Below, in pieces: positions 13,001 to 62,707 of a DNA stretch of 64,000 nt. Each line of letters starts with the position of its first letter. Position 1 is the first letter of the stretch. This DNA comes from Bacteroidales bacterium (GTDB lineage: Bacteria; Bacteroidota; Bacteroidia; Bacteroidales; P3): positions 1,855 through 65,854 of the forward strand of contig JAZNHG010000035.1 in NCBI GenBank assembly GCA_045576855.1. The letters are read 5' to 3'. The translations under genes were made by a program, and so were the position numbers. The notes beneath the pieces are model-generated. The model made no database searches. It worked only from the letters and a program-made list of their open reading frames with translations, and had not been told where the DNA came from.

Positions 13001-15244
13001 GTTCAGCTGGCGCACACGCTGCCAGTCGCCTAACGTACTGCTCCAGGCGTTTCCGTTGAGGCTCTCCAGGTCCTCGCACCACGGCAGAGTGTAGTCCTGC
13101 GTGGCCGAACGGCGCTGGTAGCGCATGTCCTCGCACGGGGTCTGGCAGGGGCGGTAGACGAAGAGGTCGTATTCTGTCGAGGGCACGAGGCCGCCGATGG
13201 AAGCGTGGTCTACGTGGTAGAAGGTGTCCACCATGCCGGAGCCGAGGGCGAAGCCGTGCGGGCCATACTGCACCAGCACCGTGTCGTAGGGCTGAGCCCA
13301 ACTGAGCTCCATGTGGGTGCCCCGGCGGTGCAGCACGCGCGGCTCCTCGATGGCGCAGCGGCTACCCGTCACCGAATGGACACGTACATCGACATACCAA
13401 CCGGGATTGCCCAGGCGGATGGCGATATGCCGACCGGTGGAATTGGTGGGCACGGTGGCGGCAAATGTGTGTCGGCCGCCGTCGCTCCACGCCGTGTCGA
13501 GGGGCACGAAGGTGGTGATATCGTCGGGATGCACCATAGTGCCCAGTATCACCATCGCCCCATTGTTCTCGCCGCTGAAGGTCACCGACACCTGCGTGCC
13601 CGGCAGCCCCGTCAGGCGCTCGCTGGCCATGTAGGCGTCCACACCACTGCAGCCGTCGCGGAAATAGACGGCACGGTCCACCAGGTTGAAGTTGCCGCCA
13701 CAGTAAGCCTGCAGCACGTTGAAGGTCCACTCCGGTGGCAGTCCCTGACTCTGGCTGAAGTTGGAGCAGTAGCCGTCGGCGGCGGTCGGCATCACGGCAG
13801 TGCGGGCCGTCACACTGCGGGCAATGTTGAGCGACCCCTGGCAGGTGGGATAGACGGTGAAGATATAGTTTGTCTCGGCGTCGAGGCCCGTGATGTCGAG
13901 CGGCGACGTGACGTTGGAGAAGCTCAGCGAGTCGACCATAGCCCCCTCGCGGCGCACACCGACGTTGCATGTGGGATTGCCGTAGCTGCTCCAGGCCAGG
14001 GTGACCCGGTCGTACTCGATATGGTAGACCCGGAGCGAGTCTATACCGCAGTTCTCGATGCCCATATCGTCGATGTACAGGCGGCGTCCGATACCGTTCT
14101 GCTGCGACTGTTGCATGCGCAACGCCAGGCGGCGGCCGTTGGATGACGGCGTCCAGGTGAAGCTGTATTCCCGCCATTGGGTGGTGTTGTCCACGTAGAA
14201 AGACTGTATCGTGGTGAAGCCGTACTGGTTATAGTCGGAGCCCGCGCTGTCGCAGGTGCCCACCTGCACATAGGTGCTGCTGTGGCTGGCGCGCAGCTGG
14301 AGGCGCACCGTGTGGCTGCCCACACCCTGCAGCGGCGGGGTGGCCACCAGGCCGAAGTGGCCCGCGGCGTCGTTGTTGCCGCAGCTGAGCATCAGCGAAC
14401 GGCTGCCCGAACTGTGGTGGGTGGCCACCACCTGGGGCAGGCTCTCCTCGTCGTCGAAGTTGACCACCTGCAGCCAGCAGCTGGGGAAGGAGCCTTCAGC
14501 CAGTCCCTCGAAGCCCTCGCGGAAGGGCATATCGGCCGAGCCGCAGGCCGTGCGCACAAAGAGGCGGTCGGCGCAGCAGCGGTTGCCGGCCGCCGCAGTG
14601 GCCACCACCGAGATGTCGTAGCTGGTGGCCGGATTGAGCCCCGTCAGGGTATGGCTCGTGCCGGTGATGCCGCTGTAGGTCTGGTCGTTGCAGACCACCG
14701 TGAAGGGGCCCGCCGCATTGGTGGCCGTCCAGCTCAAGCTGATGCTGGTGGCGGTGACGGCGGTGGTGTCGAGGCCGGTCACAGGATTGGTGCATACATC
14801 CGAGACGCCGGAGACAGACCAGTTCAGCTCGAAGCCCGAGCTGACCACCGAGCCGTCGCTATGGAAGCTCACCAGCAGCTGGCCGCGGGTGGTGCTGACG
14901 CTGACGGTGCCGGTGCCGCCCGCCTGGCTGTAGTAGGTGGTCTGGTCGTCGTGGATGGTGAGCCAGTCGCAGCACGATTCGGTCTGGTAGCTGCCGCTGA
15001 GGGTGATGGTCAGGCCCGCCGATGCCTGGATGAGCACCGCGCCGTCGAAGCCGTTGGCATAGTCCGACAGGGGGCCGCCGTTGTCGTAGATGGTGCCCGA
15101 GCCCAGGGTGCAGGCATCCAGCACAATGGTGTCGTGGGCCAGCATATAGGTAACCGACTGGGCCCGGAGCGATGCCGGCAGCAGGGCCGGAACCAGGAGC
15201 AGGACCAGAAGAAGCAGGGTATGTTTTCGTTGTGTCATTGTCAT
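7082..15244 (-). CDS. giant (about 2720 aa) modular secreted surface protein with a T9SS type-B (gliding-motility CHU_C-like) C-terminal sorting domain
   Basis: The start is taken at MTMTQRKHTLLLLVLLLVPALLPASLRAQS (ATG 15244, ATGA overlap with the upstream regulator stop). There is a CUB-like N-terminal domain. Beta-sandwich (MAM / choice-of-anchor-like) modules alternate with FN3-like modules several times. A PKD-like block (YWDYGNG..HPGTYTVRL) lies at about nt 8530-8770. The C-terminus NLVSPNGDGTNDTW...GTYYYR lies at about nt 7085-7350. Confidence 0.85.
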   Translation of the reverse strand: MTMTQRKHTLLLLVLLLVPALLPASLRAQSVTYMLAHDTIVLDACTLGSGTIYDNGGPLSDYANGFDGAVLIQASAGLTITLSGSYQTESCCDWLTIHDDQTTYYSQAGGTGTVSVSTTRGQLLVSFHSDGSVVSSGFELNWSVSGVSDVCTNPVTGLDTTAVTATSISLSWTATNAAGPFTVVCNDQTYSGITGTSHTLTGLNPATSYDISVVATAAAGNRCCADRLFVRTACGSADMPFREGFEGLAEGSFPSCWLQVVNFDDEESLPQVVATHHSSGSRSLMLSCGNNDAAGHFGLVATPPLQGVGSHTVRLQLRASHSSTYVQVGTCDSAGSDYNQYGFTTIQSFYVDNTTQWREYSFTWTPSSNGRRLALRMQQSQQNGIGRRLYIDDMGIENCGIDSLRVYHIEYDRVTLAWSSYGNPTCNVGVRREGAMVDSLSFSNVTSPLDITGLDAETNYIFTVYPTCQGSLNIARSVTARTAVMPTAADGYCSNFSQSQGLPPEWTFNVLQAYCGGNFNLVDRAVYFRDGCSGVDAYMASERLTGLPGTQVSVTFSGENNGAMVILGTMVHPDDITTFVPLDTAWSDGGRHTFAATVPTNSTGRHIAIRLGNPGWYVDVRVHSVTGSRCAIEEPRVLHRRGTHMELSWAQPYDTVLVQYGPHGFALGSGMVDTFYHVDHASIGGLVPSTEYDLFVYRPCQTPCEDMRYQRRSATQDYTLPWCEDLESLNGNAWSSTLGDWQRVRQLNDLPGFVGQSFGSDGSISLQMSSWGFSWDYYSMAMLPDVEVDSTSVLSFYIYDMAPQSTLIVGTVPDDYQSPAEHFRVLDTIHISANNARRHYSYELRPSDTLFDGRLVLAYQHPYEYSYYSCYIDEMQIEHASYGTLQVVHTGFDTLAFDLSWLHQADSVEVTLVGGGNTFADTVQAADIHSIGFGGLDTGTLYYCYVRPLAGGCRSFAGYAITLSYGIGGYGYCFNFSDVLSYELPYHWAADSTTLVTTGDYLQLRPRGSVAMHPMTGIDRQSFSFRARSSVPGDTLLLGWLPADSIPVPAATFTTQAQAMVPIDTFVVGAEWEYYMMRLPALAADTLRLLIRGGAGVTDLDELEISYYPHVHFAVDGNVVDCSVDADQMQSYYLTVTDSASGEERTMYVQTNPFRVTGLQMDKTYYFTWRCLYQTEGCRPVVRIHTGGLIPLPYCEDFNVSNGTLTVPPTWTFIKNNASNNVSLDTWGPSLRMDPGNNRWMYAVLPELAVDSAMSLHSYFYTWTDGGVQIGVMDNATDTSSFLPLWTSYNNDWQQADVELSQYVDKRIAIRTRADMRLFNMHVYGYPLPKISLVAARTLKFTTSTASPYWLHYSNPWNSSEDTMFYVDTTVFFIHDTNILTSGHATILQTDSAGYTCEGNREYNLSYRNGVPWCYDASWNTLGFAHYAARGHSGPGYVTRDNYNQRATRFYGNSSSWAVLEDFNVDSIRHAGLKIRYDAGSVFDTLVVGVMTDAYDTASFTPVDTLTYTITDTLQQAFVDFQSYADTGRWIALHHLWNQNASWFDVRYLYVDGCPGALGATASLSRWNRVKIDGPHTPFYVEYGYSDNGQGSGANTILRVDSVPLILILDPETRYDFYFRCDSNSYTCVPKQQVTTLAAPLELPSCIDFDTVRAGTIPRSWTARNVGIGATNAVAHSDTNSLVMPIASNSYMITPDINIDSIQKVALSLWYQVEDLSDRLVVGVMSNPADMSTFHPVRTLAPLETGVWQHGLVEFSAAPDDAHFIALRARSNRQAGGRSIYVDDVYVTSCAAFDFTVQRLTNNSIDLTWSHVGNPNVTVSVIDDGQVSQVFNNAEPPLHIEPLTTLHYYTFRFESECSATDTGYCSTNYRDSLSVVTPAPGTGCVNPTDMASPQAVFFSGSYRNPYAHAGAVNYGSQHPDSRHTVCYDTAQRDPRTGNLLRTIPVGYTSSVRLGNWSTNAYTPEAEGVIYSLFVDTSSFELLLLRYAAVLQDPMHAPSDQPRFRMELLDTNYNIIDSACTSADFIADQSLGWNTAEDGVLWKDWTAVGVDLSAHAGEQVYFRLTTYDCNEGSHYGYAYFTLECMRKNMNTVSCGDVDSNTLSAPEGFHYRWYTSQSGATVSTSQSITVPSQDITYYCDVSKLDNPNCHFVISAYGGTRYPMASFDTSMTVDSCRFYVSFTNTSGVSNDGVTPLSGEHCESAYWDYGNGTTSVNYHGYAVYTHPGTYTVRLISGIALDECQDTAVMTLTLTLPAGMAPSDTTVVSICDNQSYLYYGQPYTDAGEYYHIVPIPNETCDSINVLQLSVRPTSLADTVAVVCDSISWHGGVYYTSDTLTAPVGLNSVYCDSTLRLALTVNYSSEVNDSIYICPGYPYLYRGVDYGGPVVFDELLPTRQNCDSLVHVSLIARDSNYHLSVLYRFDSTDWQEPDSVLKSCDPTLLEIRDSIEGAVAHSWQLFMRDTVVASADTFFSYRFEEGQDAMTAYLSLVVTDIIGCYDTLSWPLFVLQSAIPDFHTDPDVPAMHNPETQFVNLTWPDTVDYLWRIQQQEGGMFDTTSEVAPLYRWGEAGDNMAGEYTVRLLSFWSHTVPAFRVDSVDWIDSTLRNVWLYETFTHTCIDSVEHVVTITNDYLQFPNLVSPNGDGTNDTWRVVNLLEMGNYSMNELWIYDRTGALVYHVKNIRREDQFWNPLDTRSPDGTYYYRFMAQGQYGLVKRNGVIEVVR

Positions 15245-15978
15245 GCGGTTGGGGGATTGTATCGGTATCCGAAGTGAGTTTTGTTTACTATGCAGGCGCC
15301 TTGCGCACCCATTTTCTTGCGCAGGCGGGCAATATGCACGTCGACGGCCCGCTCGCCGACCAGGGCGTCGCCCGGCCACACGGCGGCCAGTATGTCGGCC
15401 CGCGAGAAGAAGCGGCCGGGATGCGAGGCCAGCAGGTCGAGGATGCACTGCTCGCGCAGGGTGAGCAGCGGCGACTCCGCCGGCTCGGACGCACGCGCAC
15501 CGCCGCAACGCCGCAGCACGGCACGCACCCGCGCCAGCACGGTGTCGAAGGCGAACGGCTTGGCGATATAGTCGTCGGCACCCGCGTCGAAGCCCTGCAG
15601 CTGGTGGTCGTGGCTGTCCAGGGCGGTGAGGAAGATGACGGGCGTCTCGTCGCCGCGCGACCGCAGCAGGCCGGCCATCTCGAAGCCCGACATGCGGTCC
15701 ATCATCACGTCGAGCAGTATGAGGTCGTATCGCTGGCTTTGCGCCCCGATTTTCTCCAGCGCCTCCTCGGCGCTGCCGGCCGTGTCTACCCGATAGCCCT
15801 CGCTCTCCAGGTTGAAGCGCAGTATTTCGCAGAGGTCCTCCTCGTCGTCGACGACCAGCAGCCGCTGGCAGCAAGCCGCAGCCGCGCGGACGGACGGGGC
15901 CGGCTGCGGGCTGACGTCCTGGGCTGTCGTGTGCGCCGCCGGACGCAGGGGGGCGGATGATGTTTCGTTCTTTGCCAT
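15241..15978 (-). CDS. OmpR/PhoB-family response regulator
   Basis: Start taken at MAKNETSS (ATG 15978). Receiver domain (LLVVDDEEDL, ILLDVMMDRMSG, DDYIAKPF) plus a winged-helix output domain (VDVHIARLRKKMG, GYRY). Confidence 0.85.
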   Translation of the reverse strand: MAKNETSSAPLRPAAHTTAQDVSPQPAPSVRAAAACCQRLLVVDDEEDLCEILRFNLESEGYRVDTAGSAEEALEKIGAQSQRYDLILLDVMMDRMSGFEMAGLLRSRGDETPVIFLTALDSHDHQLQGFDAGADDYIAKPFAFDTVLARVRAVLRRCGGARASEPAESPLLTLREQCILDLLASHPGRFFSRADILAAVWPGDALVGERAVDVHIARLRKKMGAQGACIVNKTHFGYRYNPPTA

Positions 15979-16071
15979 ATTTCTTTTCCCATGCCGCGAC
16001 ATACGCCCATGCGCCCGTATCATACACAATACCAACCTCATGGAACCTCGGTCCAGCGGCACTTAGAAATG

Positions 16072-16100
16072 CAAATATACAGAAAAATATTTAAATCAAA
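16072..16100 (-). promoter_or_regulatory. candidate promoter of the regulator / giant protein / kinase transcription unit (-33 TTTG, -7 TATATTTG)
   Basis: The minus strand reads TTTG-17 bp-TATATTTG, which matches the Bacteroidota consensus TTTG/TAnnTTTG. It lies about 90 nt upstream of ATG 15978. Confidence 0.5.
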
Positions 16101-16220
16101 GGTCTTAAAATAAAAAAAGCAGAAAAACTCCACCCCACAACCCGACGGCGGGGCACCATGCAGCAGTTTTCGACCCGCCGTCGCCGTCCGAAACAGGCAT
16201 CCGAAATGTTAAAATGCAAG

Positions 16221-16268
16221 GATGGTGGTAGGATGGTGGTAGGTTGATGGTAGGATGGTGGTAGGATG
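16221..16268. repeat. 11-bp tandem array GATGGTGGTAG, about 4.4 units
   Basis: Read directly: gatggtggtag gatggtggtag gttgatggtag gatggtggtag gatga. Confidence 0.9.
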
Positions 16269-16283
16269 ATACCCTTCGGGTAG

Positions 16284-16322
16284 GTGTTCAGTGCTCAGTG
16301 TTCAGTGTTCGGCATTCAGTGG
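16284..16322. repeat. 7-bp tandem array GTGTTCA, about 5 units
   Basis: gtgttca gtgctca gtgttca gtgttcg gcattca gtgg. Confidence 0.9.
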
Positions 16323-16357
16323 AAAAGAGGTTGCTGTACGTATCCTACGGTCTTGAT

Positions 16358-16401
16358 ACTCAGTGTTTGACACTGAATGCTTAACACTTGGCACTGAATA
16401 A
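16358..16401. repeat. 7/14-bp periodic segment rich in CACTGAA, the inverted partner of the GTGTTCA array
   Basis: actcagt gtttgac actgaat gcttaac acttggc actgaat. Positions 16371-16380 (cactgaatgc) are the exact complement of 16312-16321 (gcattcagtg). Confidence 0.8.
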
Positions 16402-16417
16402 AGCTCGTTTCCGACTC

Positions 16418-16452
16418 TCAATTCTCAATTTTCAATTCTCAATTTTCAATTC
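16418..16452. repeat. 7-bp tandem array alternating TCAATTC/TCAATTT, 5 units
   Basis: tcaattc tcaattt tcaattc tcaattt tcaattc. Confidence 0.9.
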
Positions 16453-16622
16453 AACCCCTCTCAGCATGTTTTCGAATTTTGCAAGTAAAATATTGTTAAA
16501 CTTTCTTAAATCACATCATAAAAGACTTGTAATTACATCTACATCAGCACGTAAGCAGGTTTTACCGAGAGACAAGAAAGACACCCCCCAAACCGACGGC
16601 TTGGCGAAGGAAGAGAATAAAT

Positions 16623-16653
16623 TTTGCGGAATCAAAAAAAAAGTGTATTTTTG
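16623..16653 (+). promoter_or_regulatory. candidate promoter of the OMP gene (-33 TTTG, 19-bp spacer, -7 TATTTTTG)
   Basis: attTTTGcggaatcaaaaaaaaagtgTATTTTTGcac. The -7 box ends 25 nt before ATG 16679. Confidence 0.5.
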
Positions 16654-16678
16654 CACTTTGCAAATAAAGATAAAAAAG

Positions 16679-17470
16679 ATGAAAAAAACAGCATTTCTCA
16701 TTGCCGCAGTGGCACTTATGACGGCTGCCAACGCGCAAGTGGTAATCGGCATTCAGGGCGGCTACCACTGGCAGAAGAACACCCAATCGTATGATACAGA
16801 GAATACGCGTCTGGCCACCAACTGGCTGGGCGGACTGCAGCTGGGCTACAATATCACGCCCGAATTGTATGTCGGTGTGAGCGGCAACTACCAAGACTTT
16901 GCTACGGACACCTTCTACCTGCACAGCATCATCGACTTCGAGGGCATGATGCGCGAGGTCGACAACCGCGAGCTGAAGGGTCACCACACGGGCTGGACCG
17001 TGGGCCCGCAGGTGAAATGGGAATTTCTGAAATACGGCAACATGCACTTCCACCTGCTGCTGCAGGGCACCGTGTCGTCCACGGGCTACACCACCCTGGA
17101 CGAGACCTTCGACACCCCCTTCCGCAACAACGGCGAGCATGTGACCAAACCGGTGCTGGCCGACAGCCTGCACACCTTCACCTGGGGCGTCAGCCTGCGG
17201 CCCACGCTGACCTATGCCTTCTCGCGCCACCTGAGCGCCGAGCTGAGCCTCGACTTCCTGAGCATCGGCTACATCGACCACCGCGCCACCGACGACCACA
17301 TGCAGCCCAAGTATGACAACGAAGGCCGCCTGGAATACCTCGACGGCGACATAGTCTACACCACCACCACCCACCGCACCCGCACCATCTATGCCGGCCT
17401 GAACACGCTGATGGAGACCTTGCGCTGGGAGAGCCCCCTGCTGCGTCTGGGCTTCAACTGGACCTTTTAG
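16679..17470 (+). CDS. outer-membrane beta-barrel protein (porin/OmpW-like family)
   Basis: Start taken at MKKTAFLIAAVALMTAANAQ (signal peptide). The protein has alternating hydrophobic strand patterns and a C-terminal LRLGFNWTF. The upstream part of ORF 16388-17470 runs through repeat DNA. Confidence 0.55.
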   Translation: MKKTAFLIAAVALMTAANAQVVIGIQGGYHWQKNTQSYDTENTRLATNWLGGLQLGYNITPELYVGVSGNYQDFATDTFYLHSIIDFEGMMREVDNRELKGHHTGWTVGPQVKWEFLKYGNMHFHLLLQGTVSSTGYTTLDETFDTPFRNNGEHVTKPVLADSLHTFTWGVSLRPTLTYAFSRHLSAELSLDFLSIGYIDHRATDDHMQPKYDNEGRLEYLDGDIVYTTTTHRTRTIYAGLNTLMETLRWESPLLRLGFNWTF

Positions 17471-17620
17471 GGAGTGGAGAGTGGAGAGTGGAGAGTGGAG
17501 AGTGGAGAGTGGAGAGTGGAGAGCGGAGAGCGGAGAGTGGAGAGTGGAGAGTGGAGAGTGGAGAGTGGAGAGCGGAGAGTGGAGAGTGGAGAGTGGAGAG
17601 TGGAGAGTGGAGAGCGGAGA
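17471..17620. repeat. 7-bp tandem array GGAGAGT, 21 units with 4 GGAGAGC variants
   Basis: Units in register from 17474 to 17620. The array begins 1 nt after the OMP stop codon (TAG 17468-17470). Confidence 0.95.
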
Positions 17621-17650
17621 GCAGTTGCCGTACCCGGATACTGCTCACTG

Positions 17651-17720
17651 CCAACTATTAACTGCCAACTGCCAACTGTCAACTGCCAACTGCCAACTGC
17701 CAACTGCCAACTGCCAACTG
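17651..17720. repeat. 7-bp tandem array CCAACTG (CAACTGC), 10 units
   Basis: ccaacta ttaactg ccaactg ccaactg tcaactg ccaactg x5. The array ends 18 nt before ATG 17739. Confidence 0.95.
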
Positions 17721-17738
17721 AACATTAAACCATAAACC

Positions 17739-19328
17739 ATGTACACCAAAGAACAAGGACTGTATATAGCCCACTGCGACGAGGGAGCCCTCGCACTGGT
17801 GGGCCGCATGGCCAACCGCCACGGACTGATAGCCGGCGCCACCGGCACCGGCAAGACCGTCACCCTGCAGGTGATGGCCGAGACCTTCTGCCAAGCCGGC
17901 GTGCCCTGTTTCATGGCCGACATGAAGGGCGACCTCAGCGGCATCAGCCAGGCCGGACAGATGAGCTCGTTCATTGAGAAACGCAAGGACGCCTTCGGGG
18001 TCCCCAACCCCGAATTCCAGCCCTGTCCCGTGCGCTTCTACGACGTGTTGGGCGAACAGGGCCACCCCATCCGCGCCACCGTGAGCCAGATGGGTCCGCA
18101 GCTGCTCAGCCGCCTGCTGGGCCTGAACGAGACGCAGGACGGCGTGCTGAACATCGTGTTCCGCATCGCCGACGAGAACGGCCTGCTGCTGCTCGACATG
18201 AAGGACCTGCGCGCCATGCTCGATTTCGTGGCCCGCCACGCCAAAGAATACACCACCCAGTACGGCAACATCAGCACCGCCACCGTGGGTGCCATACAGC
18301 GCTCGCTGCTGCAACTCGACGCCCAAGGGGCCGACCGCTTCTTCGGCGAGCCCTCGTTCGACATATACGACCTGCTGCAGACCGATGGCGGCAAGGGCAT
18401 CATGAATGTGCTGGCGGCCGACAAGCTGATGCTGCAGCCCAAACTCTACAGCACCTTCCTGCTCTGGCTCCTCTCGGAACTCTACTCCACCCTGCCCGAG
18501 GTGGGCGACCAGGAGCTGCCGCGTCTGGTCTTCTTCTTCGACGAAGCCCACATGCTCTTCGAAGACACCTCCAAGGCCCTCGTCGACAAGATAGAGCAGG
18601 TGATACGCCTCATCCGCTCCAAAGGCGTGGGTATCTACTTCGTCACCCAGAGCCCGACCGACATACCGGAGAACATACTGGGCCAGCTGGGCAACCGCGT
18701 GCAGCATGCCCTGCGCGCCTATACCCCCAAGGACCAGCGCGCCGTGCGCACCGCCGCCGACACCTTCCGCCCCAATCCGAAATTCAAGACCGACGAGGCC
18801 ATCATGAACCTCGAGACCGGCGAGGCCCTGGTGAGCCTGCTCGACGAGAAAGGCGCCCCCGGCATGGTGCAGCGCGCCAAGATTCTCTTTCCCCTGAGCC
18901 AGATTGGCGCCATCACCGACAGCCAGCGCGCCGACATCATACGCGGCAGCCGCCTGTACGGCAAATACGACAAGATGGTGGATCGCGAGAGCGCCTTCGA
19001 GGTGCTGCTCCGGCAAGCCGAAGCCGCCGAAGCCGAAGAGGCCGAGCAAGCCGTGGTCGAGCAGCCGGAAGCCCCGGTAGCCACCGCCGACAAGCAGCAG
19101 CCCGCCAGAGAGAAAAAGAAGAGCGGTCTGGCCAGCAAGATACTGAAGTCGGTGCTCACCGCCGCCACCGCTACCCTGGCCACCGCCGCCGGTACCGCCG
19201 TCAGCAATGCCGTCAGCGGCAAGAAGACCAAGAGCAAGACCTCCGTCGGCCAGAAGATAGTCAAGAACACCACCAGCAGCGTGACCCGCACCCTGACGCG
19301 CGACATACTGGGCAACCTGCTGAAATAA
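17739..19328 (+). CDS. HerA-like ATPase, DUF853 (YjgR) family
   Basis: 529 aa. Walker A GATGTGKT, Walker [10 protein letters not shown], and a low-complexity Lys/Ala/Thr-rich C-terminal tail typical of DUF853 proteins. Confidence 0.8.
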
Positions 19329-26462: not shown

Positions 26463-27099
26463 AAAGAAACTCTCACGCCTCGTCATACTGCTGACGGCAG
26501 CCATAGTCGTCGTCGACCAGATAGTGAAAGTCCTGGTCAAGACCCACATGCAGATAGGCGACGACATAGCCGTCCTCAGCTGGCTGCACATCCATTTCGT
26601 CGAGAACGAGGGCTTTGCCTTCGGCACCACCCTGGGCGGCGTGGCAGGCAAATATGTGCTCACCCTCTTCCGTATCGTCGCCGCCGGCTTCATCGCCTTC
26701 CTCATTGCCAAGTATATACGCCACCGGCAGCGCCCCTCGCTCGTCATCAGCCTGGCGCTCATCCTTGCCGGCGCCGTGGGCAACATCATCGACAGCTGCT
26801 TCTACGGCCTCGTTTTCAACGAAAGCTACTACAGCGTGGCCTCCCTGTTCCCGCCCGAAGGCGGATACGCCGGCTTCCTGCAGGGCCGGGTGGTAGACAT
26901 GTTCTATCTGCCTCTCTTTGAGTTCGATTGGCCCAACTGGCTGCCTTTGCTGGGCGGTAAACACTTCGAATTCTTCAGCGCCATATTCAATGTGGCCGAT
27001 TCCGCGGTCACTATAGGCGTGGTGTGGCTGATTGTCGACCAACTTTTTCTTGCACCAAAAAGCTCAAAATCAGACGTCAAGGAGACAACCAACGAATAA
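26455..27099 (+). CDS. lspA: lipoprotein signal peptidase (signal peptidase II)
   Basis: 214 aa, four TM segments, VENEGFAFG and FNVADSAVTIG motifs. Confidence 0.9.
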   Translation: MDRKKLSRLVILLTAAIVVVDQIVKVLVKTHMQIGDDIAVLSWLHIHFVENEGFAFGTTLGGVAGKYVLTLFRIVAAGFIAFLIAKYIRHRQRPSLVISLALILAGAVGNIIDSCFYGLVFNESYYSVASLFPPEGGYAGFLQGRVVDMFYLPLFEFDWPNWLPLLGGKHFEFFSAIFNVADSAVTIGVVWLIVDQLFLAPKSSKSDVKETTNE

Positions 27100-27112
27100 G
27101 AGCAAAAAAAAA

Positions 27113-27144
27113 TTTGGTCAGTTCGCGAAAAGTTAGTAATTTTG
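27113..27144 (+). promoter_or_regulatory. promoter of tRNA-Phe (-33 TTTG, 20-bp spacer, -7 TAATTTTG)
   Basis: aaTTTGgtcagttcgcgaaaagttagTAATTTTGcacccg. The -7 box ends 20 nt before the tRNA 5' end. Confidence 0.6.
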
Positions 27145-27164
27145 CACCCGAAATCGAGAGAGAT

Positions 27165-27237
27165 GGCGTCGTAGCTCAGTTGGTAGAGCGAAGGACTGAA
27201 AATCCTTGCGTCACTGGTTCAAATCCAGTCGATGCCA
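27165..27237 (+). tRNA. tRNA-Phe (anticodon GAA)
   Basis: Hand-folded cloverleaf: acceptor GGCGTCG/CGATGCC, anticodon arm AAGGA-CTGAAAA-TCCTT, T-loop TTCAAAT. CCA is not encoded. Confidence 0.92.
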
Positions 27238-27240
27238 CCC

Positions 27241-27271
27241 AGAGAGACCTGACAGGGTCTCTCTTTTTTTT
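27241..27271 (+). terminator. intrinsic terminator after tRNA-Phe
   Basis: 9-bp stem agagagacc/ggtctctct with a 6-nt loop, followed by a T-run of 7-8. Confidence 0.8.
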
Positions 27272-27410
27272 GCCCCAGCGGCCGACACCATCCGCCATTC
27301 GCGCCGCCTACACCCCCACCCCGCCCTGCATACCCCGAGCCGACCGACAGCCATCGCCGTCCCACCGGTTCAACATCCACCAGTCAAACAGCCTCCCGAA
27401 ATGTTAAATA

Positions 27411-27465
27411 GGTAGGATGGTGGTAGGATGGTGGTAGGTTGATGGTACGTTGGTGGTAGGATGAC
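27411..27465. repeat. 11-bp tandem array GGTAGGATGGT, 5 units
   Basis: ggtaggatggt ggtaggatggt ggtaggttgat ggtacgttggt ggtaggatgac. Confidence 0.9.
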
Positions 27466-27503
27466 CCTAATTAGGGCGGAGGGTAGAAGGCGGAGGTTGG
27501 AGC

Positions 27504-27622
27504 GATGAATGATGAATGATAAATGATGAATATCAACTGACTACCAACTGTCAACTGTCAACTGCCAACTGCCAACTCTCAACTCTCCATTCTCAATTCT
27601 CAATTCTCAATTTTCAATTCCC
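27504..27622. repeat. continuous 7-bp register of 17 units whose sequence drifts along the array
   Basis: gatgaat gatgaat gataaat gatgaat atcaact gactacc aactgtc aactgtc aactgcc aactgcc aactctc aactctc cattctc aattctc aattctc aattttc aattccc. Confidence 0.9.
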
Positions 27623-27825
27623 ATCCTCTCAGTGTGCATCTGGATTTTGCAAGTGCAAAAATGATAAAAAATGTTAAACCTCCTCTATGCACCAGTCGGC
27701 ACGGGGTAGGGCAGACGTGGTGGACAGCGCCGTCCCCACGCCCCAAGCGGCCGTGTCCGGCCGGCAGCAAAGGCGAAAAAAGACGAAGTACCGGAAACAT
27801 GATGCGTTTGCCCGGCCTGTGGCTT

Positions 27826-28045
27826 GATTGCGGCGCGGCATATCTGGTGCATGTTATTGAAAGGAAGGCCCTACGGGCCAGATTGCGGCGCGGCGTACGG
27901 GGTGCTTGCTATTGAGAGAAAGGCCCTACGGGCCAGAATGCGGCGTGGCGTACGGGGTGCTTGCTATTGAGAGAAAGGCCCTACGGGCCAGAATGCGGCG
28001 CGGCATATCTGGTGCATGTTATTGAAAGAAAGGCCCTACGGGCCA
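27826..28045 (+). repeat. four contiguous 55-bp direct repeats in the order A-B-B'-A', each ending in the hairpin GGCCC-TAC-GGGCC
   Basis: Units 27826-27880, 27881-27935, 27936-27990 and 27991-28045. Units 1 and 4 are near-identical (..CATATCTGGTGCATGTTATTGAAAG..). Units 2 and 3 are near-identical (..CGTACGGGGTGCTTGCTATTGAGAG..). Confidence 0.9.
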
Positions 28046-28065
28046 AGACCCGACGGTTGCAAAGG

Positions 28066-28198
28066 ATGCTCCGTCAGGAGCTCCCTCTCAATAGCAAGAC
28101 CCCGAAACACACCATGCTGCTCCGTTAGGAGCTTCCTTTCAATAGCCATTCCCGCACCTGCGCCGCCGGACCCTGGCCCGTTGGACTTTGCCTTCAAT
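28066..28198 (-). repeat. two to three degenerate inverted copies of the 55-bp unit
   Basis: The reverse complement contains CGGGGTCTTGCTATTGAGAG and GGCGGCGCAGGTGCGGGAATGGCTATTGAAAGGAAG. Their terminal hairpins are GCTCC-TGAC-GGAGC and GCTCC-TAAC-GGAGC in place of GGCCC-TAC-GGGCC. Confidence 0.75.
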
Positions 28199-28335
28199 CG
28201 CCATCCATCAGTGCAAGCGACTCGGTTTCTAGGTTTAATATGCAGATAAAATTTGCAAAAAAATTTGCGCAGATGAAATTCATTTTGTACCTTTGCCGCG
28301 TCAACCGAATGTCTAATCCAAAAGCCTAACACCTG

Positions 28336-28584
28336 ATGGAGAAGCGAATAGGAACGATTACCATACTCATAAAGGAGCGGCAGCAGTCTGCTGCCATCAA
28401 TCAGATACTGTCTGAGCACTCGGATATTATACTCTGCCGACAGGGCCTGCCCTTCCACGAGCGGGCCGTGGCCGTCATCTCGCTGATAGTGGAGGGTACC
28501 GTCAACAGCATCAACGCCCTCACCGGCCAGCTGGGACGCCTGCCCGAGGTGGAGTGCAAAGCGGTGGTAACGAAGAATAATTAA
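28336..28584 (+). CDS. small TM1266-family protein (putative iron-only hydrogenase system regulator)
   Basis: 82 aa. The pattern MEKRIGTITILI..R......IN.IL......I..R.G.P......ISLIVEG....I.ALTG.LG....V matches my recollection of TIGR03959-type proteins. It sits immediately upstream of hydG. Confidence 0.65.
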   Translation: MEKRIGTITILIKERQQSAAINQILSEHSDIILCRQGLPFHERAVAVISLIVEGTVNSINALTGQLGRLPEVECKAVVTKNN

Positions 28585-28603
28585 TCCTAAAAAATATAGA
28601 GAA

Positions 28604-30034
28604 ATGAAACACCAGAACTTTATCGACCGCGACAAACTGTACGGCATGATAGACCAACCGGCCCCGACGGAGAGCGAGCTGAACGACATCCTGAACAAGG
28701 CACGCAAGCTGAAAGGCCTCAACCTGCAGGATGTGGCCCACCTGCTCAACGTCAAAGACGAAGCCGACATACAGAAGATACTGGACACCGCCGAGTACTG
28801 CAAGGACGAAATCTACGGACGCCGCCTGGTGCTCTTCGCCCCCATCTACACGGGCAACGCCTGTGTGAACAACTGCGTCTACTGCGGTTTCCGCCGCGAC
28901 AACAAGGCGCTGAAGCGCAAAATACTGACCCTGGACGAGATAGAGACCGAGACGCTGCACCTGCTGCGCATGGGACACAAGCGCGCCCTGCTGATTTGCG
29001 GCGAGAGCCCGCGCAACGACGCCAACTACATGGTGGAGGCCATACGCCGCACCTACGCCGCCAAGGACGAGAAGGGCAGCACCATACGCCGCATCAATGT
29101 CGAGCTGGCACCCATGAGCGTCGAGGACTACGCCAAGCTGAAGGCCGAGAAGATAGGCACCTACGTCTGCTTCCAGGAGACCTACGACGAGGTGGAGTAC
29201 GCCAAATTCCACCCCGCCGGCACCCCCAAGGCCGACTACCTCTACCGCCTCACCTGCATGGACCGCGCCCAGGAAGGCGGCATCAACGACGTGGGCATCG
29301 GCGCACTGTTCGGACTGGTCGACTACCGCTTCGAGATACTGGCCATCATGGAGCATGCCCGCCACCTGGAAGAGGACTACGGCTGCGGCCCCCACACCGT
29401 CTCCTTCCCCCGCATCGAGCCCGCAGAAGGCACCCCCTTCAGCCAGCGCGAGAACATACCGCACCCGGTGAGCGACAAGGACTTCATGAAGATCATCGCC
29501 ATCATCCGCATCGCCATGCCCTACACGGGCATCATCATCTCGACCCGCGAGCGGCCCGAACTGCGCGACCAGCTGGTGCGTTACGGCGTCAGCCAAATCA
29601 GCGCCGCCAGCGAGACCAACCCCGGCGGCTACGACGAAGAGGGCGACAAGACGGCCGCCAAACCCTACGAGAAGACCGGCTCCACCGGCGCCCAGTTCAC
29701 CCTTGGCGACCACCGCTCGCTGGACGAGGTTATCTCTATGATGATCGACGGCGGCTACATACCCTCGTTCTGCACCGGATGCTACCGCAAGGGACGCGTG
29801 GGCGCCGACTTCATGGACCTGGCCAAACCCGGCCTCATCAAGGAGTACTGCAAGCCCAACGCCATGTTCACCTTCCGCGAGTACCTGGAGGACTACGCCA
29901 GCCCCGCCACCAAAGAGAAAGGTCTGCGCCTGCTCAAGGAGCTCACTCAGACCTTCAGCAAGGAAGAATTGAAACGTCGCGTGGAGGGTAACCTCTGCAA
30001 AATTGGCGATGGAGAGCGCGATTTGTACTTTTGA
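28604..30034 (+). CDS. hydG: [FeFe]-hydrogenase H-cluster radical-SAM maturase HydG
   Basis: 476 aa. Radical-SAM CVNNCVYCGF plus the HydG-specific C-terminal cluster motif CTGCYR..(22 aa)..C, which distinguishes it from ThiH. Confidence 0.85.
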   Translation: MKHQNFIDRDKLYGMIDQPAPTESELNDILNKARKLKGLNLQDVAHLLNVKDEADIQKILDTAEYCKDEIYGRRLVLFAPIYTGNACVNNCVYCGFRRDNKALKRKILTLDEIETETLHLLRMGHKRALLICGESPRNDANYMVEAIRRTYAAKDEKGSTIRRINVELAPMSVEDYAKLKAEKIGTYVCFQETYDEVEYAKFHPAGTPKADYLYRLTCMDRAQEGGINDVGIGALFGLVDYRFEILAIMEHARHLEEDYGCGPHTVSFPRIEPAEGTPFSQRENIPHPVSDKDFMKIIAIIRIAMPYTGIIISTRERPELRDQLVRYGVSQISAASETNPGGYDEEGDKTAAKPYEKTGSTGAQFTLGDHRSLDEVISMMIDGGYIPSFCTGCYRKGRVGADFMDLAKPGLIKEYCKPNAMFTFREYLEDYASPATKEKGLRLLKELTQTFSKEELKRRVEGNLCKIGDGERDLYF

Positions 30035-32786: not shown

Positions 32787-32853
32787 ACCTGTCGGCAGGC
32801 ACTTCCGGCGGTGCAACGCTCTGCCAAACAGTACAGAAACACGACACTAAACC

Positions 32854-32887
32854 CTTACCAACACCTACCGTGGTAGGTGTTGGTAAG
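32854..32887. repeat. perfect 16-bp inverted repeat (hairpin) 68 nt after the kinase stop
   Basis: cttaccaacacctacc-gt-ggtaggtgttggtaag. The right arm runs straight into the 11-mer array. There is no U-tract. Confidence 0.85.
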
Positions 32888-32934
32888 GAGTTGGTAAGGA
32901 GTTGGTAAGGAGTTGGCAAGGAGATGGTAGGTTG
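32869..32934. repeat. 11-bp tandem array TTGGTAAGGAG, about 6 units including diverged end units
   Basis: gtggtaggtgt ttggtaaggag ttggtaaggag ttggtaaggag ttggcaaggag atggtaggttg. Confidence 0.9.
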
Positions 32935-33050
32935 GGAGCCTGACGTTCAGCGGGTTACAAGGGCCGTTTTTCGCGTCACAACAGGTGGGGGTATTTTTTC
33001 CAACATGCCGCCACACGGGACCAGACACCGCTGCCCTGACGGCTGCAAGT
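32924..33050 (+). repeat. dispersed element, copy 1 (inverted homologue at about 41255-41395)
   Basis: GATGGTAGGTTGGGAGCCTGACGTTCAGCGGGTTACAAGGGCCGTTTTTCGCGTCACAACAGGTGGGGG compared with the reverse complement of 41326-41394, GATGGTAGGTTGAGGGCTTGAGGTTCAGTGGGTTACAAGGGCGTTTTTTCGCGTCACAACAGGCAGGGG. Confidence 0.8.
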
Positions 33051-41254: not shown

Positions 41255-41395
41255 TTCTTGCAAAAAATATTTCAAATTTTCGCACCGGCAGCCAAACCCG
41301 CACAATCGCCATTTTCCCCCAATTGCCCCTGCCTGTTGTGACGCGAAAAAACGCCCTTGTAACCCACTGAACCTCAAGCCCTCAACCTACCATCT
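41255..41395 (-). repeat. dispersed element, copy 2 (inverted homologue of 32924-33050)
   Basis: See the copy 1 alignment. This copy lies between the divergent TBDR and OMP genes. Confidence 0.8.
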
Positions 41396-41440
41396 ACTTA
41401 CCAACGACTTACCAACGACTTACCAACGACTTACCAACAC
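41385..41440. repeat. 11-bp tandem array ACTTACCAACG, about 4-5 units (complement TTGGTAAGT..)
   Basis: acttaccaacg acttaccaacg acttaccaacg acttaccaaca, preceded by aacctaccatct. A partner aaggtgtt follows 17 nt later, allowing a hairpin with aacacctt. Confidence 0.9.
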
Positions 41441-41623
41441 CTTCTACAGTAGTAGTTGATAAGGTGTTAGCACGTATTTCGTCACCCGATGGAATGCCCT
41501 CTTCCTGACGGTGGCGCCGGGCACTCCACCCCCGGTGCGGAGGTGGACACAAACTTTTTTTCCACCGCGGGTGTAAGATTCGGCCACCTTCGTGCGACTT
41601 ATATACGACGAATCAAACCGACG

Positions 41624-42960: not shown

Positions 42961-44555
42961 GACAGCTTGAAGACGATGGGCAGGTGGTATTGCACGCGGA
43001 CGGCCTTGCCCTGGTTCCGTCCGGGCTTCCACTTGGGCATGGCCTCGACCACCCGCACGGCCTCCTCGTCGCAGCCGCCGCCGATGCCGCGCAGCACCTT
43101 GATATTGGAGAGCCGACCGTCGGCCTCCACCACGAAGGCCACATACACCCTGCCCTCGACGCCCTCTTCCTTGGCCTTCGCGGGATAGTGGATGTTCTCA
43201 CTCAGGAACTTGTACATAGCCTCCATTCCACCAGGGTACTCGGGCGTCTCTTCGACCACCTGGTACACCTCGTCCGACTGACCCATGACTATCCGCACGG
43301 GCTCCTTGGCAGCGTCCACCTCGACCACCCACAGCTTGATGACGGCATCGCCCTGTTGGTTCCCGTCCTGCCAGGCGGCGGCGAAGCACAGGGTGACATC
43401 GCCGTTGTCGGTCTTCACGGTGGTGGTGTGGTCAGTGGTGCCGCTGGAGTGTCCTCGCCGCAGTTCGCGGTCGACGGCCTGGATGACTTTCTTCTCATTG
43501 CGGCTCAGCACCTGGCCGTCGACCACCCCCCGCGAGGTCGGAAGCTGGTCGATCTCCCAGGCGCCGTAGCTGTGCTCGGCCCCTTCGCCCTTACAGTCCA
43601 CCCGCACTTCTTGCAGCGTCAGGCTAGCCTGGCTATGGATACTGTTGTAGCCTATGCCGCCGAACGGGAGCGGCTTGCCTCCGGTCCGGTGATAGGTCAC
43701 GGTCAGCAGGCATTCGCCCGTCTGCACCCCGGCAGGCTCGGCATTGGCCGTCCGGCAACCCACCATCATCAATACGACCACCAGCGGCAGGGCCGCCAGC
43801 GGCTTCCACGCGCCGAAGCGCGATTTCGTTTTGTTCATCATAACGATACGGTTTTTAAGGTTAATACTGTTGAAATTATGGGTGATATGGCCATATCCGA
43901 ATCCAGTGGCCTGCCGGTAGAGCAGGCGCAGATAGTCCTCCTTGGCGCAACGCGACAGCACCGCCGCGTCGGCCTGCCGCTCGTGGACGGCCAGCAAGTC
44001 GCGCAGCATCAGCCACGCGAAGGGGTTGAACCAGGCCACACAGCACAGCAGGCGCATCAAGAGCACATCCTCCGTATGGTGCAGCCGCACATGCTCGCGC
44101 TCGTGGGCCAGGATGCATTGCAGTTCGCCGTCGGCATAGTCCCCTTCGGGCAGCACAACGTGGCGGAAGAACGAGAACGGCCCGCCATAGCCGCGGCGCA
44201 CCATCCGGAGCGTCCGCGCCAGCTGCACCGTCAGCACCGCCAGGGAGAGCAGCACGCCCGCCAGGTATATTATGGTAGGGATGTGGCGTGCCGCTTCCGC
44301 AGCCGGCCGCGAGGCATCAGCCACCTCGACCGCAGGCAGGACACCACCCGTCCCCGCCCCGGCAGCCGTCAGGCCCATCCGCGACGGCAGCGAGAACTCC
44401 GGCAGCGGCACCAACGGATAGACCAGGCTGAACACCAAGGAGATAATCAAATAGAAGCGCGAGAGCTGCAACCACCCGTCGCGCCGCAACAGCAACCGGT
44501 AGAGCCCCCAGAAGAGCCCCGCCGCCACCACAGAGAAAAGAACCCAGTGCACCAT
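42957..44555 (-). CDS. BlaR1/MecR1-type M56 metallopeptidase sensor fused to a C-terminal TonB domain
   Basis: 532 aa. TM segments, HEXXH (ILAHEREHVRLHH), an uncharacterised middle domain of about 170 aa, and the TonB_C signature PEYPGG..A...FL..NI.YP..A...G..G.V.V.FVV..DG.... Confidence 0.85.
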   Translation of the reverse strand: MVHWVLFSVVAAGLFWGLYRLLLRRDGWLQLSRFYLIISLVFSLVYPLVPLPEFSLPSRMGLTAAGAGTGGVLPAVEVADASRPAAEAARHIPTIIYLAGVLLSLAVLTVQLARTLRMVRRGYGGPFSFFRHVVLPEGDYADGELQCILAHEREHVRLHHTEDVLLMRLLCCVAWFNPFAWLMLRDLLAVHERQADAAVLSRCAKEDYLRLLYRQATGFGYGHITHNFNSINLKNRIVMMNKTKSRFGAWKPLAALPLVVVLMMVGCRTANAEPAGVQTGECLLTVTYHRTGGKPLPFGGIGYNSIHSQASLTLQEVRVDCKGEGAEHSYGAWEIDQLPTSRGVVDGQVLSRNEKKVIQAVDRELRRGHSSGTTDHTTTVKTDNGDVTLCFAAAWQDGNQQGDAVIKLWVVEVDAAKEPVRIVMGQSDEVYQVVEETPEYPGGMEAMYKFLSENIHYPAKAKEEGVEGRVYVAFVVEADGRLSNIKVLRGIGGGCDEEAVRVVEAMPKWKPGRNQGKAVRVQYHLPIVFKLS

Positions 44556-44596
44556 TTTAACTTTTAACTTTTAACTTTTAACTCTTAACTTTCAAT
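44555..44596. repeat. 7-bp tandem array TTTTAAC (GTTAAAA on the coding strand), about 6 units, filling the blaI-blaR1 junction
   Basis: ttttaac x4, then tcttaac and tttcaat. It spans from the last base of the blaR1-like ATG through the 29-nt spacer into the last blaI-like codons. Confidence 0.9.
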
Positions 44597-44950: not shown

Positions 44951-45228
44951 AATTATATCGTATTGTCATTAATTATATTTCTAGTTACATAACGGCATAA
45001 TGCATTACGTATTGTATGATAGTGATATTTTTTTCAAAAAAAAATTTGTATTGGGCGGAGTTTTGAAGCAAGAAAAAAAACATCGTGCACGACATAACCG
45101 CCTTACTGACATGGGGTCGCACCATCGAGAGAAAGGTGTCGAATGGGGCAAAAATACAGGCAAATGTGGGTCATAACCCCATAAACATCAGTATTTCTAC
45201 ACAATTCATCCGACAAAAAACCGACTGC

Positions 45229-45280
45229 AGTCGGACTTCAGTCGGACATGAGTCGGACATGAGTCGGACATGAATCGGTG
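45229..45280. repeat. 11-bp tandem array AGTCGGACATG, about 4.7 units
   Basis: agtcggacttc agtcggacatg agtcggacatg agtcggacatg aatcggtg, preceded by the palindrome ccgactgcagtcgg. Confidence 0.9.
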
Positions 45281-45378
45281 TTGAACAGGGGTTGTCAGAG
45301 GGGTGTGGCGAAATAGGTCGCACGCGATATAATTAACATCTGAGCATGTCGCCAGGGGTGTCGTCAGGGGGTTGAAAA

Positions 45379-49832: not shown

Positions 49833-49870
49833 AACAAATTCTTAATTCTTGATTCTAAACTCTTAATTAA

Positions 49871-59901: not shown

Positions 59902-60013
59902 AGCGAGCGTTTTGAGTGCAAAGGTACACATTTTTCCCGAAACACACAAGTAGTCGCCGCTACAACTGCCGCAATAATTGCCCCACATTGCGCATGGCTG
60001 TCCGGCACATTTC

Positions 60014-60068
60014 AACCATCGTTTAACCATCGTTCTACCATCCATGATGGTCGAACAATGGTAGAACG
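60014..60068. repeat. 11-bp periodic segment of 5 units containing a perfect 11-bp inverted repeat, in the ACCATC/GATGGT family
   Basis: aaccatcgttt aaccatcgttc taccatccatg atggtcgaaca atggtagaacg. cgttctaccat (60031-60041) is the complement of atggtagaacg (60058-60068). Confidence 0.85.
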
Positions 60069-62189: not shown

Positions 62190-62199
62190 ACACATGCAA

Positions 62200-62232: not shown

Positions 62233-62250
62233 GCATAGCGTAAAACAATC

Positions 62251-62705: not shown

Positions 62706-62707
62706 AA

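Follow-up and report, generated by a model that had tools for sequence, protein, structure and literature searches.

A dispersed non-coding mosaic repeat family with 11-mer arrays, heptamer arrays and hairpin modules in uncultured Bacteroidales

Introduction

To our knowledge, most descriptions of dispersed mosaic repeats, such as repetitive extragenic palindromes and bacterial interspersed mosaic elements (REP/BIME), BOX elements and Correia elements, concern a small number of well-studied bacterial groups. Here we analyse two copies, called A and B, of an intergenic element found in a 64,000-nt stretch of a Bacteroidales genome (GenBank assembly GCA_045576855.1, contig JAZNHG010000035.1, forward strand, positions 1,855 to 65,854), hereafter the window, whose own numbering is used throughout. 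A first-pass annotation of this DNA had proposed that segments 16125-16500 and 27310-27680 share six ordered modules and represent one dispersed element. This interpretation is essentially right and the finding is real. The family is dispersed in uncultured Bacteroidales, in at least 25 sequence contexts. The 13-mer CCGAAATGTTAAA of its left end has no occurrence in the searchable literature, in which we found no description of such a family in Bacteroidales, and this mosaic repeat family appears to be undescribed so far.

Several known systems share traits with these elements. In pneumococcal BOX elements, which are dispersed in intergenic regions, end modules surround variable internal repeats in the order boxA-boxB(n)-boxC, and we know of no transposase for them. 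The intervening sequences (IVSs) of 23S rRNA genes in Leptospira and Coxiella consist of an inverted-repeat stem that encloses a PF05635 open reading frame (ORF), and they are present or absent between relatives. Short tandem units are also found in plasmid iteron and centromere arrays: in parC of plasmid R1, ParR binds two sets of five 11-bp iterons, and 7-bp heptad arrays are known for the omega protein.

The roles proposed for REP/BIME elements are structural, namely termination, protection of mRNA 3' ends and protein binding (PMC2817692, PMC3333891, PMC3116915). Intergenic heptamers, whose function is unexplained, have been reported as short tandemly repeated repetitive (STRR) sequences in cyanobacteria, in Beggiatoaceae and a few Bacteroidetes (PMC4679880), and in Xanthomonas and Nostoc (PMC4692102). 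Among them, the GGGAATC/GGGGAYT repeats have conserved positions, with strong variation in sequence and length between relatives (Rehm 2015, PMC4692102).

Results

Two copies in the window share a non-repeat scaffold

The coordinates and sequences given for the two segments in the first-pass annotation match the DNA. In both copies the scaffold has the same order, GCNTCCGAAATGTTAAA, an 11-mer array ending in AGGATGA, a short C/G hairpin, heptamer arrays and a right module. The latter reads CCTCTCAG-N11-ATTTTGCAAGT...TGTTAAAC in A and B, with ATTTTGCAAGT 11 nt downstream of CCTCTCAG and TGTTAAAC as the closing sequence. Both 11-mer arrays are 51 nt long (4.6 units) and carry the variant AGGTTGATGGT at the same internal position. 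The 13-mer CCGAAATGTTAAA occurs exactly twice in the window (16201 and 27396), and so does TTTTCAATTC-N4-CCTCTCAG (16443 and 27611); in 100 shuffles, the latter never matched more than once. Scanning with a left-module profile detected only two copies across the 64 kb. Local alignments compared with shuffles showed that the flanks of A and B are unrelated. The cores of the elements extend from 16195 to 16501 (A) and from 27390 to 27679 (B), and their parts are listed below; L-numbers designate contigs or loci of relatives set beside the window.

Copy A
16195-16218, plus strand: left end module GCATCCGAAATGTTAAA and 5-nt leader ATGCA; exact 13-mer at 16201-16213; homology to other copies begins here
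16219-16269, plus strand: 11-mer array, AGGATGGTGGT twice, AGGTTGATGGT, AGGATGGTGGT, AGGATGA (4.6 units)
16270-16282, plus strand: short hairpin TACCC-TTC-GGGTA after the array; statistical support modest
16284-16403, plus strand: heptamer-armed hairpin, with GTGTTCA-type arm, conserved loop and TGAACAC-type arm, ending in TGAATAAAGC
16416-16452, plus strand: TCTCAAT/TTTCAAT heptamer array; also present at the corresponding place in the second element of L034
16457-16501, plus strand: right end module CCTCTCAG-N10-AATTTTGCAAGT-N7-TGTTAAAC; homology to other copies stops at 16500-16509

Copy B
27307-27386, plus strand: outer C-rich left arm, specific to the B type; contains the inverted-repeat arm 27316-27344
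27390-27413, plus strand: left end module CTCCCGAAATGTTAAA and leader TAGGT
27414-27464, plus strand: 11-mer array, AGGATGGTGGT twice, AGGTTGATGGT, ACGTTGGTGGT, AGGATGA; of the GGTGCA type in L013
27465-27476, plus strand: short palindromic hairpin CCCTAATTAGGG; identical in L013 although the arrays on either side differ
27477-27624, plus strand: internal arrays, GGCGGAGG twice, GATGAAT four times, then CAACTGN grading into CAATTCT heptamers
27625-27679, plus strand: right end module CCTCTCAG-N10-GATTTTGCAAGT-N17-TGTTAAAC
27680-27792, plus strand: outer right extension, specific to the B type; the blastn match to L027 continues to 27792

Modules 2 to 6 of the six initially proposed are common to A and B. 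The exception is the first, the C-rich left part containing TCGCCGTCC and AAACAG, for which the similarity does not exceed chance: in local alignment, the left parts of A and B match at best over 13 nt with a score of 21, compared with 16.6 +/- 2.5 for shuffles (maximum 25). The left boundary was also placed too far out, as homology to copies elsewhere starts only at ~16195 and ~27390, ~70 nt further to the right.

The elements belong to a dispersed family with two architectures

A scan of metagenomes with the query CCGAAATGTTAAA-N5-AGGATGG returned 33 contigs, two of which (L031 and L033) are chance matches; the pre-scan estimate of chance matches was ~2. Clustering of the 145 nt upstream of each copy in the 31 real contigs yielded ~25 distinct left flanks. 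A third copy lies ~2 kb past the end of the window in L055/L056, whose LptG is 99% identical to that of the window. Copies thus stand in many unrelated flanks and have a non-repeat scaffold in common, showing that the element is dispersed, as first annotated, rather than two independent microsatellites, and that the similarity extends beyond the simple repeats themselves.

The left-module consensus, G(G/C)CNTCCGAAATGTTAAA, holds in 32 copies, and that of the right module is CCCTCAGYGTGC..GGATTTTGCAAG..TGTTAAA. Between sites, the homologous part extends from G(G/C)CNTCCGAAATGTTAAA to TGTTAAA(C). The elements range from 70 to 700 bp. Their minimal form is composed of the left module, the 11-mer array ending in AGGATGA and a short C-run/G-run hairpin, and it stands alone near promoters or gene ends in L015, L018, L021, L043 and L046. 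Tandem doubles are also found, in which a GGTGCA-type and a GGTGGT-type unit are linked by a GGAGGTN/CCGACCT heptamer hairpin (L017, L024, L027 and L034). Full-length forms consist of the minimal form, one of two interiors and the right module.

The A-type interior is a GTGTTCA-armed hairpin with a conserved loop of ~30 nt and the tail TGAATAAAGCCC. The loop of copy A, GCGGAAAAGAGGCTGCCGCA..ATCCTAC, has homologues in the A-type interiors of L020, L034, L038, L039, L040 and L047, and the full A-type architecture is repeated in L034. The B-type interior, GATGAAT followed by CAACTGN/CAATTCT arrays in that order, recurs in L019, L022/L028, L027 and L037. The B-type outer arms are common to L027, whose element stands between a DUF4249 gene and rplU, at another genomic site: the outer left arm of B is homologous to L027 297-367 (local score 36, compared with 20.8 +/- 3.0 for shuffles). 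These arms form a 29-nt inverted repeat, 27695-27723 being 76% complementary to 27316-27344. A and B are therefore two architectures of one family, each recurring at other sites, rather than copies that differ mainly by which heptamer family is expanded, as had been proposed. The modules are combined differently at different sites.

In copy A, the stretches gcattcagtg (16312-16321) and cactgaatgc (16371-16380) are exact reverse complements of one another across a 49-nt loop, as annotated. The arms extend over 32 nt (16295-16326 and 16366-16397) with 78% complementarity, and none of 200 shuffles of 16270-16410 folds as well as this region folded as DNA (z = -4.75). The stem was initially described as cargo-less. 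It carries no gene, but its loop is not arbitrary, since a ~30-nt piece of it is kept in at least six copies elsewhere. Other loops occur in L024, with a terminator-like hairpin, and in L026, with a different short loop. About three-quarters of the copies have a C-run/G-run hairpin after the array, with varying stem sequence. As a significant structure this small hairpin was rejected: z is below -1.5 in only 6 of 31 copies, and any C-run/G-run composition folds in this way.

Searches for the family in viral contigs returned no matches, and a phage origin was discarded on that ground. The right module, in the form CCTCTCAG-N9-13-ATTTTGCAAGT, gave 12 matches in contigs of GTDB-representative genomes, in unrelated taxa and at about the number expected by chance; the source species is thus either missing from the GTDB representatives or different at this module. 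Searches for exact matches to window proteins returned no record, and relatives were collected through homologues of the window proteins, the closest named ones being annotated 'MAG: Bacteroidales bacterium' (MAG, metagenome-assembled genome), and most related contigs probably come from ruminant gut samples.

A few observations were made around the copies. The C-rich outer arm of the B-type element of L027 (297-339) runs into the 3' end of the DUF4249-like ORF upstream, which is apparently ~15 codons longer through this arm (..NPDTLTTTPQPIPLLTD*); the elements can thus change the C-termini of called genes. Copy A is bracketed by a 24-nt imperfect direct repeat, CACCCCACAACCCGACGGCGGGGC / CACCCCCCAAACCGACGGCTTGGC, at 16131-16154 and 16582-16605 (83% identical, spacing 451 nt), and a weaker one is found at B (27273-27297 and 27742-27766, 72% identical). 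CCGACGG/CCGTCGG motifs recur near other copies. Downstream of B, at 27829-28150, a 55-bp unit is present 3.9 times in tandem, followed by two inverted relatives. Each unit harbours a terminator-like hairpin, GGCCCGTAGGGCC then TTTCTTTCAATAG on the minus strand. L013 has one unit fewer, and related units accompany family members in L030 and occur in L017 and L045 too. The 55-bp unit seems to represent another dispersed repeat family, one that accompanies the mosaic elements.

A second family of 11-mer elements is also present in the window, in opposite orientations at 32840-32990 and 41320-41450. It has an array of about five units of TGGTAAGGAGT / AGTCGTTGGTAAG, starting with a perfect 17-bp hairpin (32854-32888) and joined to a common non-repeat part of ~45 nt, GTTCAGYGGGTTACAAGGGCGTTTTTCGCGTCACAACAGG.

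Comparison with described repeat classes

Like REP/BIME elements (PMC2817692, PMC3333891, PMC3116915), the family consists of high-copy, non-coding, intergenic mosaics of short motifs with hairpin parts in site-specific, variable combinations. Unlike them, it has neither a 20-40-nt REP palindrome nor a conserved GTAG/CGTC tag, and the sequence before the hairpin varies among copies (GGGTAG, GGGTCA, GGGTAA, GGGGTG). Its arms are tandem heptamers, its core is a fixed 11-mer array, and many copies lie in promoter-containing intergenic regions instead of 3' ends. No gene for a REP-associated tyrosine transposase (RAYT, a Y1 transposase) was seen among the window ORFs scanned. With BOX elements the family shares conserved end modules enclosing a variable number of internal repeat modules. 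Nevertheless, the two have no sequence relation and belong to different phyla; the units are 7 and 11 nt here as against 45 nt, and our arrays vary in unit sequence as well as in copy number. The functional resemblance is closest to BIME/REP mosaics and pneumococcal BOX elements, while the sequence-level definitions of both fail.

Tandem heptamers of the STRR, TAACTGA and GGGAATC types are similarly intergenic 7-nt units that vary between close relatives, some of them just before start codons and with inverted sets forming stem-loops, and 7 is the commonest tandem period here. In contrast with plain heptamer arrays, those of our family are modules of a larger element, with conserved non-repeat ends, an 11-mer array and several heptamer families in fixed order. 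The likeness to 23S rRNA IVSs lies in an inverted-repeat stem around the same four-helix-bundle gene, with a presence that varies between relatives; here, however, the cassette is located between protein-coding genes, its arms are tandem heptamers, and 'empty' hairpins are part of the mosaic element. Iteron and centromere arrays likewise have about five direct 11-bp units, or 7-bp units in direct and inverted arrays, but they are single plasmid loci with a known binder, as opposed to dozens of chromosomal copies and several unit families.

Other classes fit less well. Like miniature inverted-repeat transposable elements (MITEs), the elements are small, non-coding and present at many unrelated sites. 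Their ends are direct repeats rather than terminal inverted repeats: (G/A)AA(A/T/G)TGTTAAA on the left is found again on the right in 11 copies. An inverted end copy is found only in L046, with a weaker one in L042, and the 29-nt inverted repeat is restricted to B-type outer arms. No parent insertion sequence or transposase with matching ends was detected among the 29 window ORFs scanned for protein domains. GTTAAAC/T fits GTTRRRY, and we take ATGTTAAAT to resemble the XerD arm of Escherichia coli dif. The family nonetheless does not belong to the attC/dif sites, since the 17 nt upstream form no palindrome and share only GCNT among copies, and the two TGTTAAA copies are in direct rather than inverted orientation. 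The 7-mers and 11-mers are contiguous and without spacers, unlike the repeats of a CRISPR array.

Arrays change faster than the scaffold, at near-constant 11-mer length

L013 belongs to the same species as the window (HerA 98.1% identical at the nucleotide level) and carries both copies at the corresponding sites. Identity between the two is 95.5-98% in flanks and scaffold. In contrast, the interior of B (27409-27624, 11-mer array included) has 64% identity to L013, compared with 98% in the flanks, and the 11-mer array of A is 84% identical to its orthologue compared with 97% for the remaining element. Rather than scattered point changes, the array differences are one GT<->CA double substitution that recurs in several units at the same position, alongside correlated changes that give rise to a central GATGCATC palindrome; in B, CAACTGC units take the place of CAATTCT units. 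Array turnover is at least 10 times faster than that of the scaffold and flanks.

In 321 kb comprising the window and related loci, the commonest tandem periods are 7 (110 arrays) and 11 (73 arrays). Copy numbers in heptamer arrays lie between 2 and 21. By contrast, 11-mer arrays nearly always have 4.1-4.9 units, even with unrelated unit sequences (window positions 32871, 41388 and 45229; L048, L050, L051, L052 and L053); across the unrelated 11-mer families of the window and its relatives the span is 4.1-5.5 units. All relatives examined have an 11-mer array at the orthologous site A, 3-6.7 units long (~5 units in four of the six), and no two of them use the same unit. L050 has one unit type, TACGGTGCATG, at both sites A and B, and the two window sites share another type. 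Many 11-mer units keep a GGTARG-like core. Together, these data suggest a length constraint on the 11-mer arrays and their concerted change.

Further 11-mer arrays were observed in the window regions 45200-45300 and 60000-60160, with AGTCGGACATG 4.5 times at 45229 and TTCAACCATCG followed by an inverted partner at 60011-60067. They are additional cases of about five units and of arrays that start or end with a short inverse copy.

Filled and empty sites

Site B is empty in L053/L054, where the tRNA terminator runs directly into the leader of the next gene. Two features of the window related to the heptamer modules also vary between relatives:

17472-17740, plus strand: related heptamer module in the spacer between the outer-membrane protein (OMP) gene and herA, GAGTGGA x21, hairpin GAGCAGT..ACTGCTC, ACTGCCA x10
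62190-62707, plus strand: insertion cassette of 518 bp, with inverted arms of the GTGTTCA family and a PF05635 four-helix-bundle gene (62251-62622)

The OMP-HerA spacer is occupied by the ~270-bp heptamer module in the window, by a shorter variant in L013 and by unrelated sequence in L014, and it is reduced to 3-14 nt in L048, L049 and L051. The L014 sequence (1262-1400; HerA 99% identical), of 140 bp with a long hairpin (AAGCTGCAAGTTT ... AAACTTGCAGCTT), replaces the heptamer module. This spacer is evidently a recurrent landing or replacement site. The cassette is missing in L057 (LptG 85% identical), in which 3 nt separate the mutase stop from the LptG start. Its absence there and the variation of the spacer show that heptamer-armed hairpins behave as discrete insertions. 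As the first-pass annotation had recognized, the GTGTTCA arms of A are of the same family as those flanking the PF05635 gene; the stem of A is thus an 'empty' member of an arm family that carries a gene elsewhere.

Genomic context and coding potential

The genes of the window are ordinary chromosomal genes. On one side of copy A is an OmpR-type response regulator gene (15241-16002, minus strand), the first of a giant CHU_C surface-protein operon transcribed from that strand; on the other side is a gene for an outer-membrane beta-barrel protein (start 16679, plus strand). By inspection, a minus-strand promoter box, TATATTTG, is found at ~16072-16079, upstream of the regulator start at 16002, and another box, TATTTTTG, at ~16636-16643, ahead of the OMP start. 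Both are of the Bacteroidetes TAnnTTTG type and lie outside the element, one on each side, in agreement with the proposed location of A between divergent promoters. Copy B follows tRNA-Phe (27164-27241) and the tRNA terminator. According to heuristic gene calling, full-length copies mostly face the start of the downstream gene, and where the tandem context is clear (window B, L027 and L028) all three are co-oriented with transcription. The short forms have mixed orientations relative to genes.

The element shows no sign of a gene product and is non-coding. A leader peptide or small ORF in the array was rejected: the frame from ATGTTAAA has 13 codons in A and a stop after four in B. Besides tRNA-Phe, Rfam 15 gave only sub-threshold chance matches over 15900-17900 and 27000-28700. 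The whole elements fold no better than shuffles (z = -1.6 and -0.9). Strand-specific RNA hairpins were discarded because plus and minus strands fold about equally, without consistent G-U bias. Pairing of the C-rich left part with the G-rich array was discarded too, as the duplex energy is about that of shuffles (mean z = -0.33, and below -2 in only 2 of 28 copies). No convincing promoter or terminator was found inside the element; GGATTTTGCAAG of the right module has the TTTG of a -7 box without the TA. By inspection, we presume resemblances to a CsrA site (CAAGGAUGG) and to Chi (GATGGTGG compared with GNTGGTGG), which fit neither all copies nor both array flavours. The same holds for presumed likenesses to sigma-54 sites, G-quadruplexes, Rho rut sites on the C-rich strand and attC/dif half-sites.

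In two operon spacers of the window, heptamer arrays extend up to the downstream start codon: GTTAAAA x5 at 44555-44592, between BlaI-like and BlaR1-like genes, and AAGAATT-type units at 49837-49868, after rpsF. TAACTGA repeats have the same placement directly before start codons (MacGregor 2015, PMC4679880).

Discussion

Our preferred interpretation, which we hold with a little more belief than doubt, is that A and B are copies of a lineage-specific, non-coding, non-autonomous family of BIME/BOX-like mosaic repeats built of hairpin modules. Each element would be assembled from a left end GCNTCCGAAATGTTAAA, a ~50-nt 11-mer array (usually 4.6 units), a short C/G hairpin, optional heptamer-armed hairpins and a right end in TGTTAAA. 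The arrays probably change by replication slippage and by short-tract gene conversion between units and between copies, for which the conserved end modules may serve as homology anchors. The hairpin modules might spread as small mobile cassettes, with the enzyme supplied in trans. More speculatively, by analogy with REP/BIME elements and rRNA IVSs, the effect on the host could be structural, with hairpins on DNA or on read-through RNA acting as processing, termination or insulation sites between transcription units.

Several findings weigh against this interpretation. The family lacks common terminal inverted repeats. No transposase, integrase, Y1/RAYT or reverse-transcriptase domain was detected in the 29 window ORFs scanned, and no target-site duplication is definable, as the filled/empty pairs (site B in L053, the OMP-HerA spacer and the cassette in L057) are too diverged to show one. 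Array elements are present at sites A and B in most relatives down to 88% HerA identity, which fits long residence better than recent mobility. In addition, 30 of 32 aligned copies have exactly the same spacing between CCGAAATGTTAAA and GGATGA (exceptions to the array length are L035, L036 and also L055), which is too uniform for free slippage. Unrelated 11-mer arrays also have about five units, which hints at a length constraint and hence at a function that the preferred explanation does not supply.

The constant array length and the concerted change are not covered by a plain 'selfish repeat' interpretation, and they are our main reason for keeping, as a doubtful alternative, a phased protein-binding platform. 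A 5 x 11-bp array would present a core (GGTARG or GTGCAWG) on one helix face to a cooperative DNA-binding protein, such as an OmpR-type response regulator like the neighbour of A or a ribbon-helix-helix protein. The element would carry an operator to many intergenic regions, and the unit sequence would co-evolve with the protein. The period of 11 bp matches the DNA helical repeat, and direct repeats phased at 11 bp are bound by PhoB, PhoP and ArcA. The near-constant unit number within the family and across unrelated 11-mer families is consistent with such a platform. So are the retention at site A of an array with a different unit in each relative (L048, L050, L051, L052 and L053), the single unit type at both sites in L050 and another at both window sites, and the often palindromic array centre (GATGCATC or GGTACC). 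Nevertheless, no binding protein was identified, several 11-mer families in one genome would need several binders, and copies are found in all gene orientations beside unrelated housekeeping genes (tRNA, rplU). Furthermore, family-wide conserved flanking modules and hairpins are typical of repeat elements, not of operators.

Action at the RNA level is a slightly weaker candidate still, which we consider improbable. The element would then be a structured non-coding RNA or, in read-through transcripts, a processing or insulation signal cut by RNase III, like the 23S IVSs that carry PF05635. Inverted heptamer arms that form long stems and enclose the gene of the 23S rRNA IVS protein argue for it, together with the prevailing orientation of full-length copies towards gene starts, their co-orientation with transcription in window B, L027 and L028, and the heptamer arrays that fill operon spacers up to start codons (44555-44592 and 49837-49868), as reported elsewhere (PMC4679880). 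However, Rfam gave no match, the whole elements fold like shuffles, the hairpins fold about equally on either strand, no TAnnTTTG promoter or terminator lies inside the element, and the short forms occur in every orientation to genes.

A phase-variation (contingency) locus, in which slippage of heptamers between divergent promoters would switch the OMP gene and the giant surface-protein operon, is very unlikely. The location of A between the promoters of surface-protein genes and the differences in heptamer copy number and unit sequence between close strains would suit such a switch. Repeats of 7 bp upstream of the hmw genes of Haemophilus influenzae provide a precedent. Yet the arrays of A are nearly identical in the window, L013 and L014, they are >110 nt away from either -7 box, and the same element stands beside tRNA, rplU and other housekeeping genes. 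Lastly, a local segmental duplication or two independent microsatellite clusters without a wider family, to which the mere two copies within the 64-kb window might have pointed, are refuted by the 31 further contigs with ~25 flanks, the shared non-repeat scaffold and the unrelated flanks of A and B.

In practical terms, the elements evidently break short-read assemblies: public contigs end inside 11-mer or heptamer arrays at both ends of L014 and at the starts of L055 and L056, and the copy numbers from metagenomes are thus underestimates. They also create spurious ORF extensions, as in the DUF4249 gene of L027. The filled and empty sites and the strain pairs with rewritten arrays between 98% identical flanks provide natural comparisons for the origin, movement and homogenization of the arrays. 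One modular element unites a fixed-length 11-mer array, several heptamer families and the widespread four-helix-bundle gene of the '23S IVS protein'.

A broader reading joins these traits, and we put it forward tentatively, as unlikely on present evidence. The heptamer-armed hairpins would be the termini of a small mobile cassette system, carrying an IVS-type gene or empty, and the 5 x 11-nt array would be a length-constrained platform, whose units are rewritten in concert across the sites of one genome and co-evolve with a trans-acting protein or template. The 7- and 11-nt arrays would then be working parts rather than slippage debris. If true, this would represent a previously undescribed mobility and homogenization system, and it might explain the heptamer repeats of Bacteroidetes, cyanobacteria and Beggiatoaceae.

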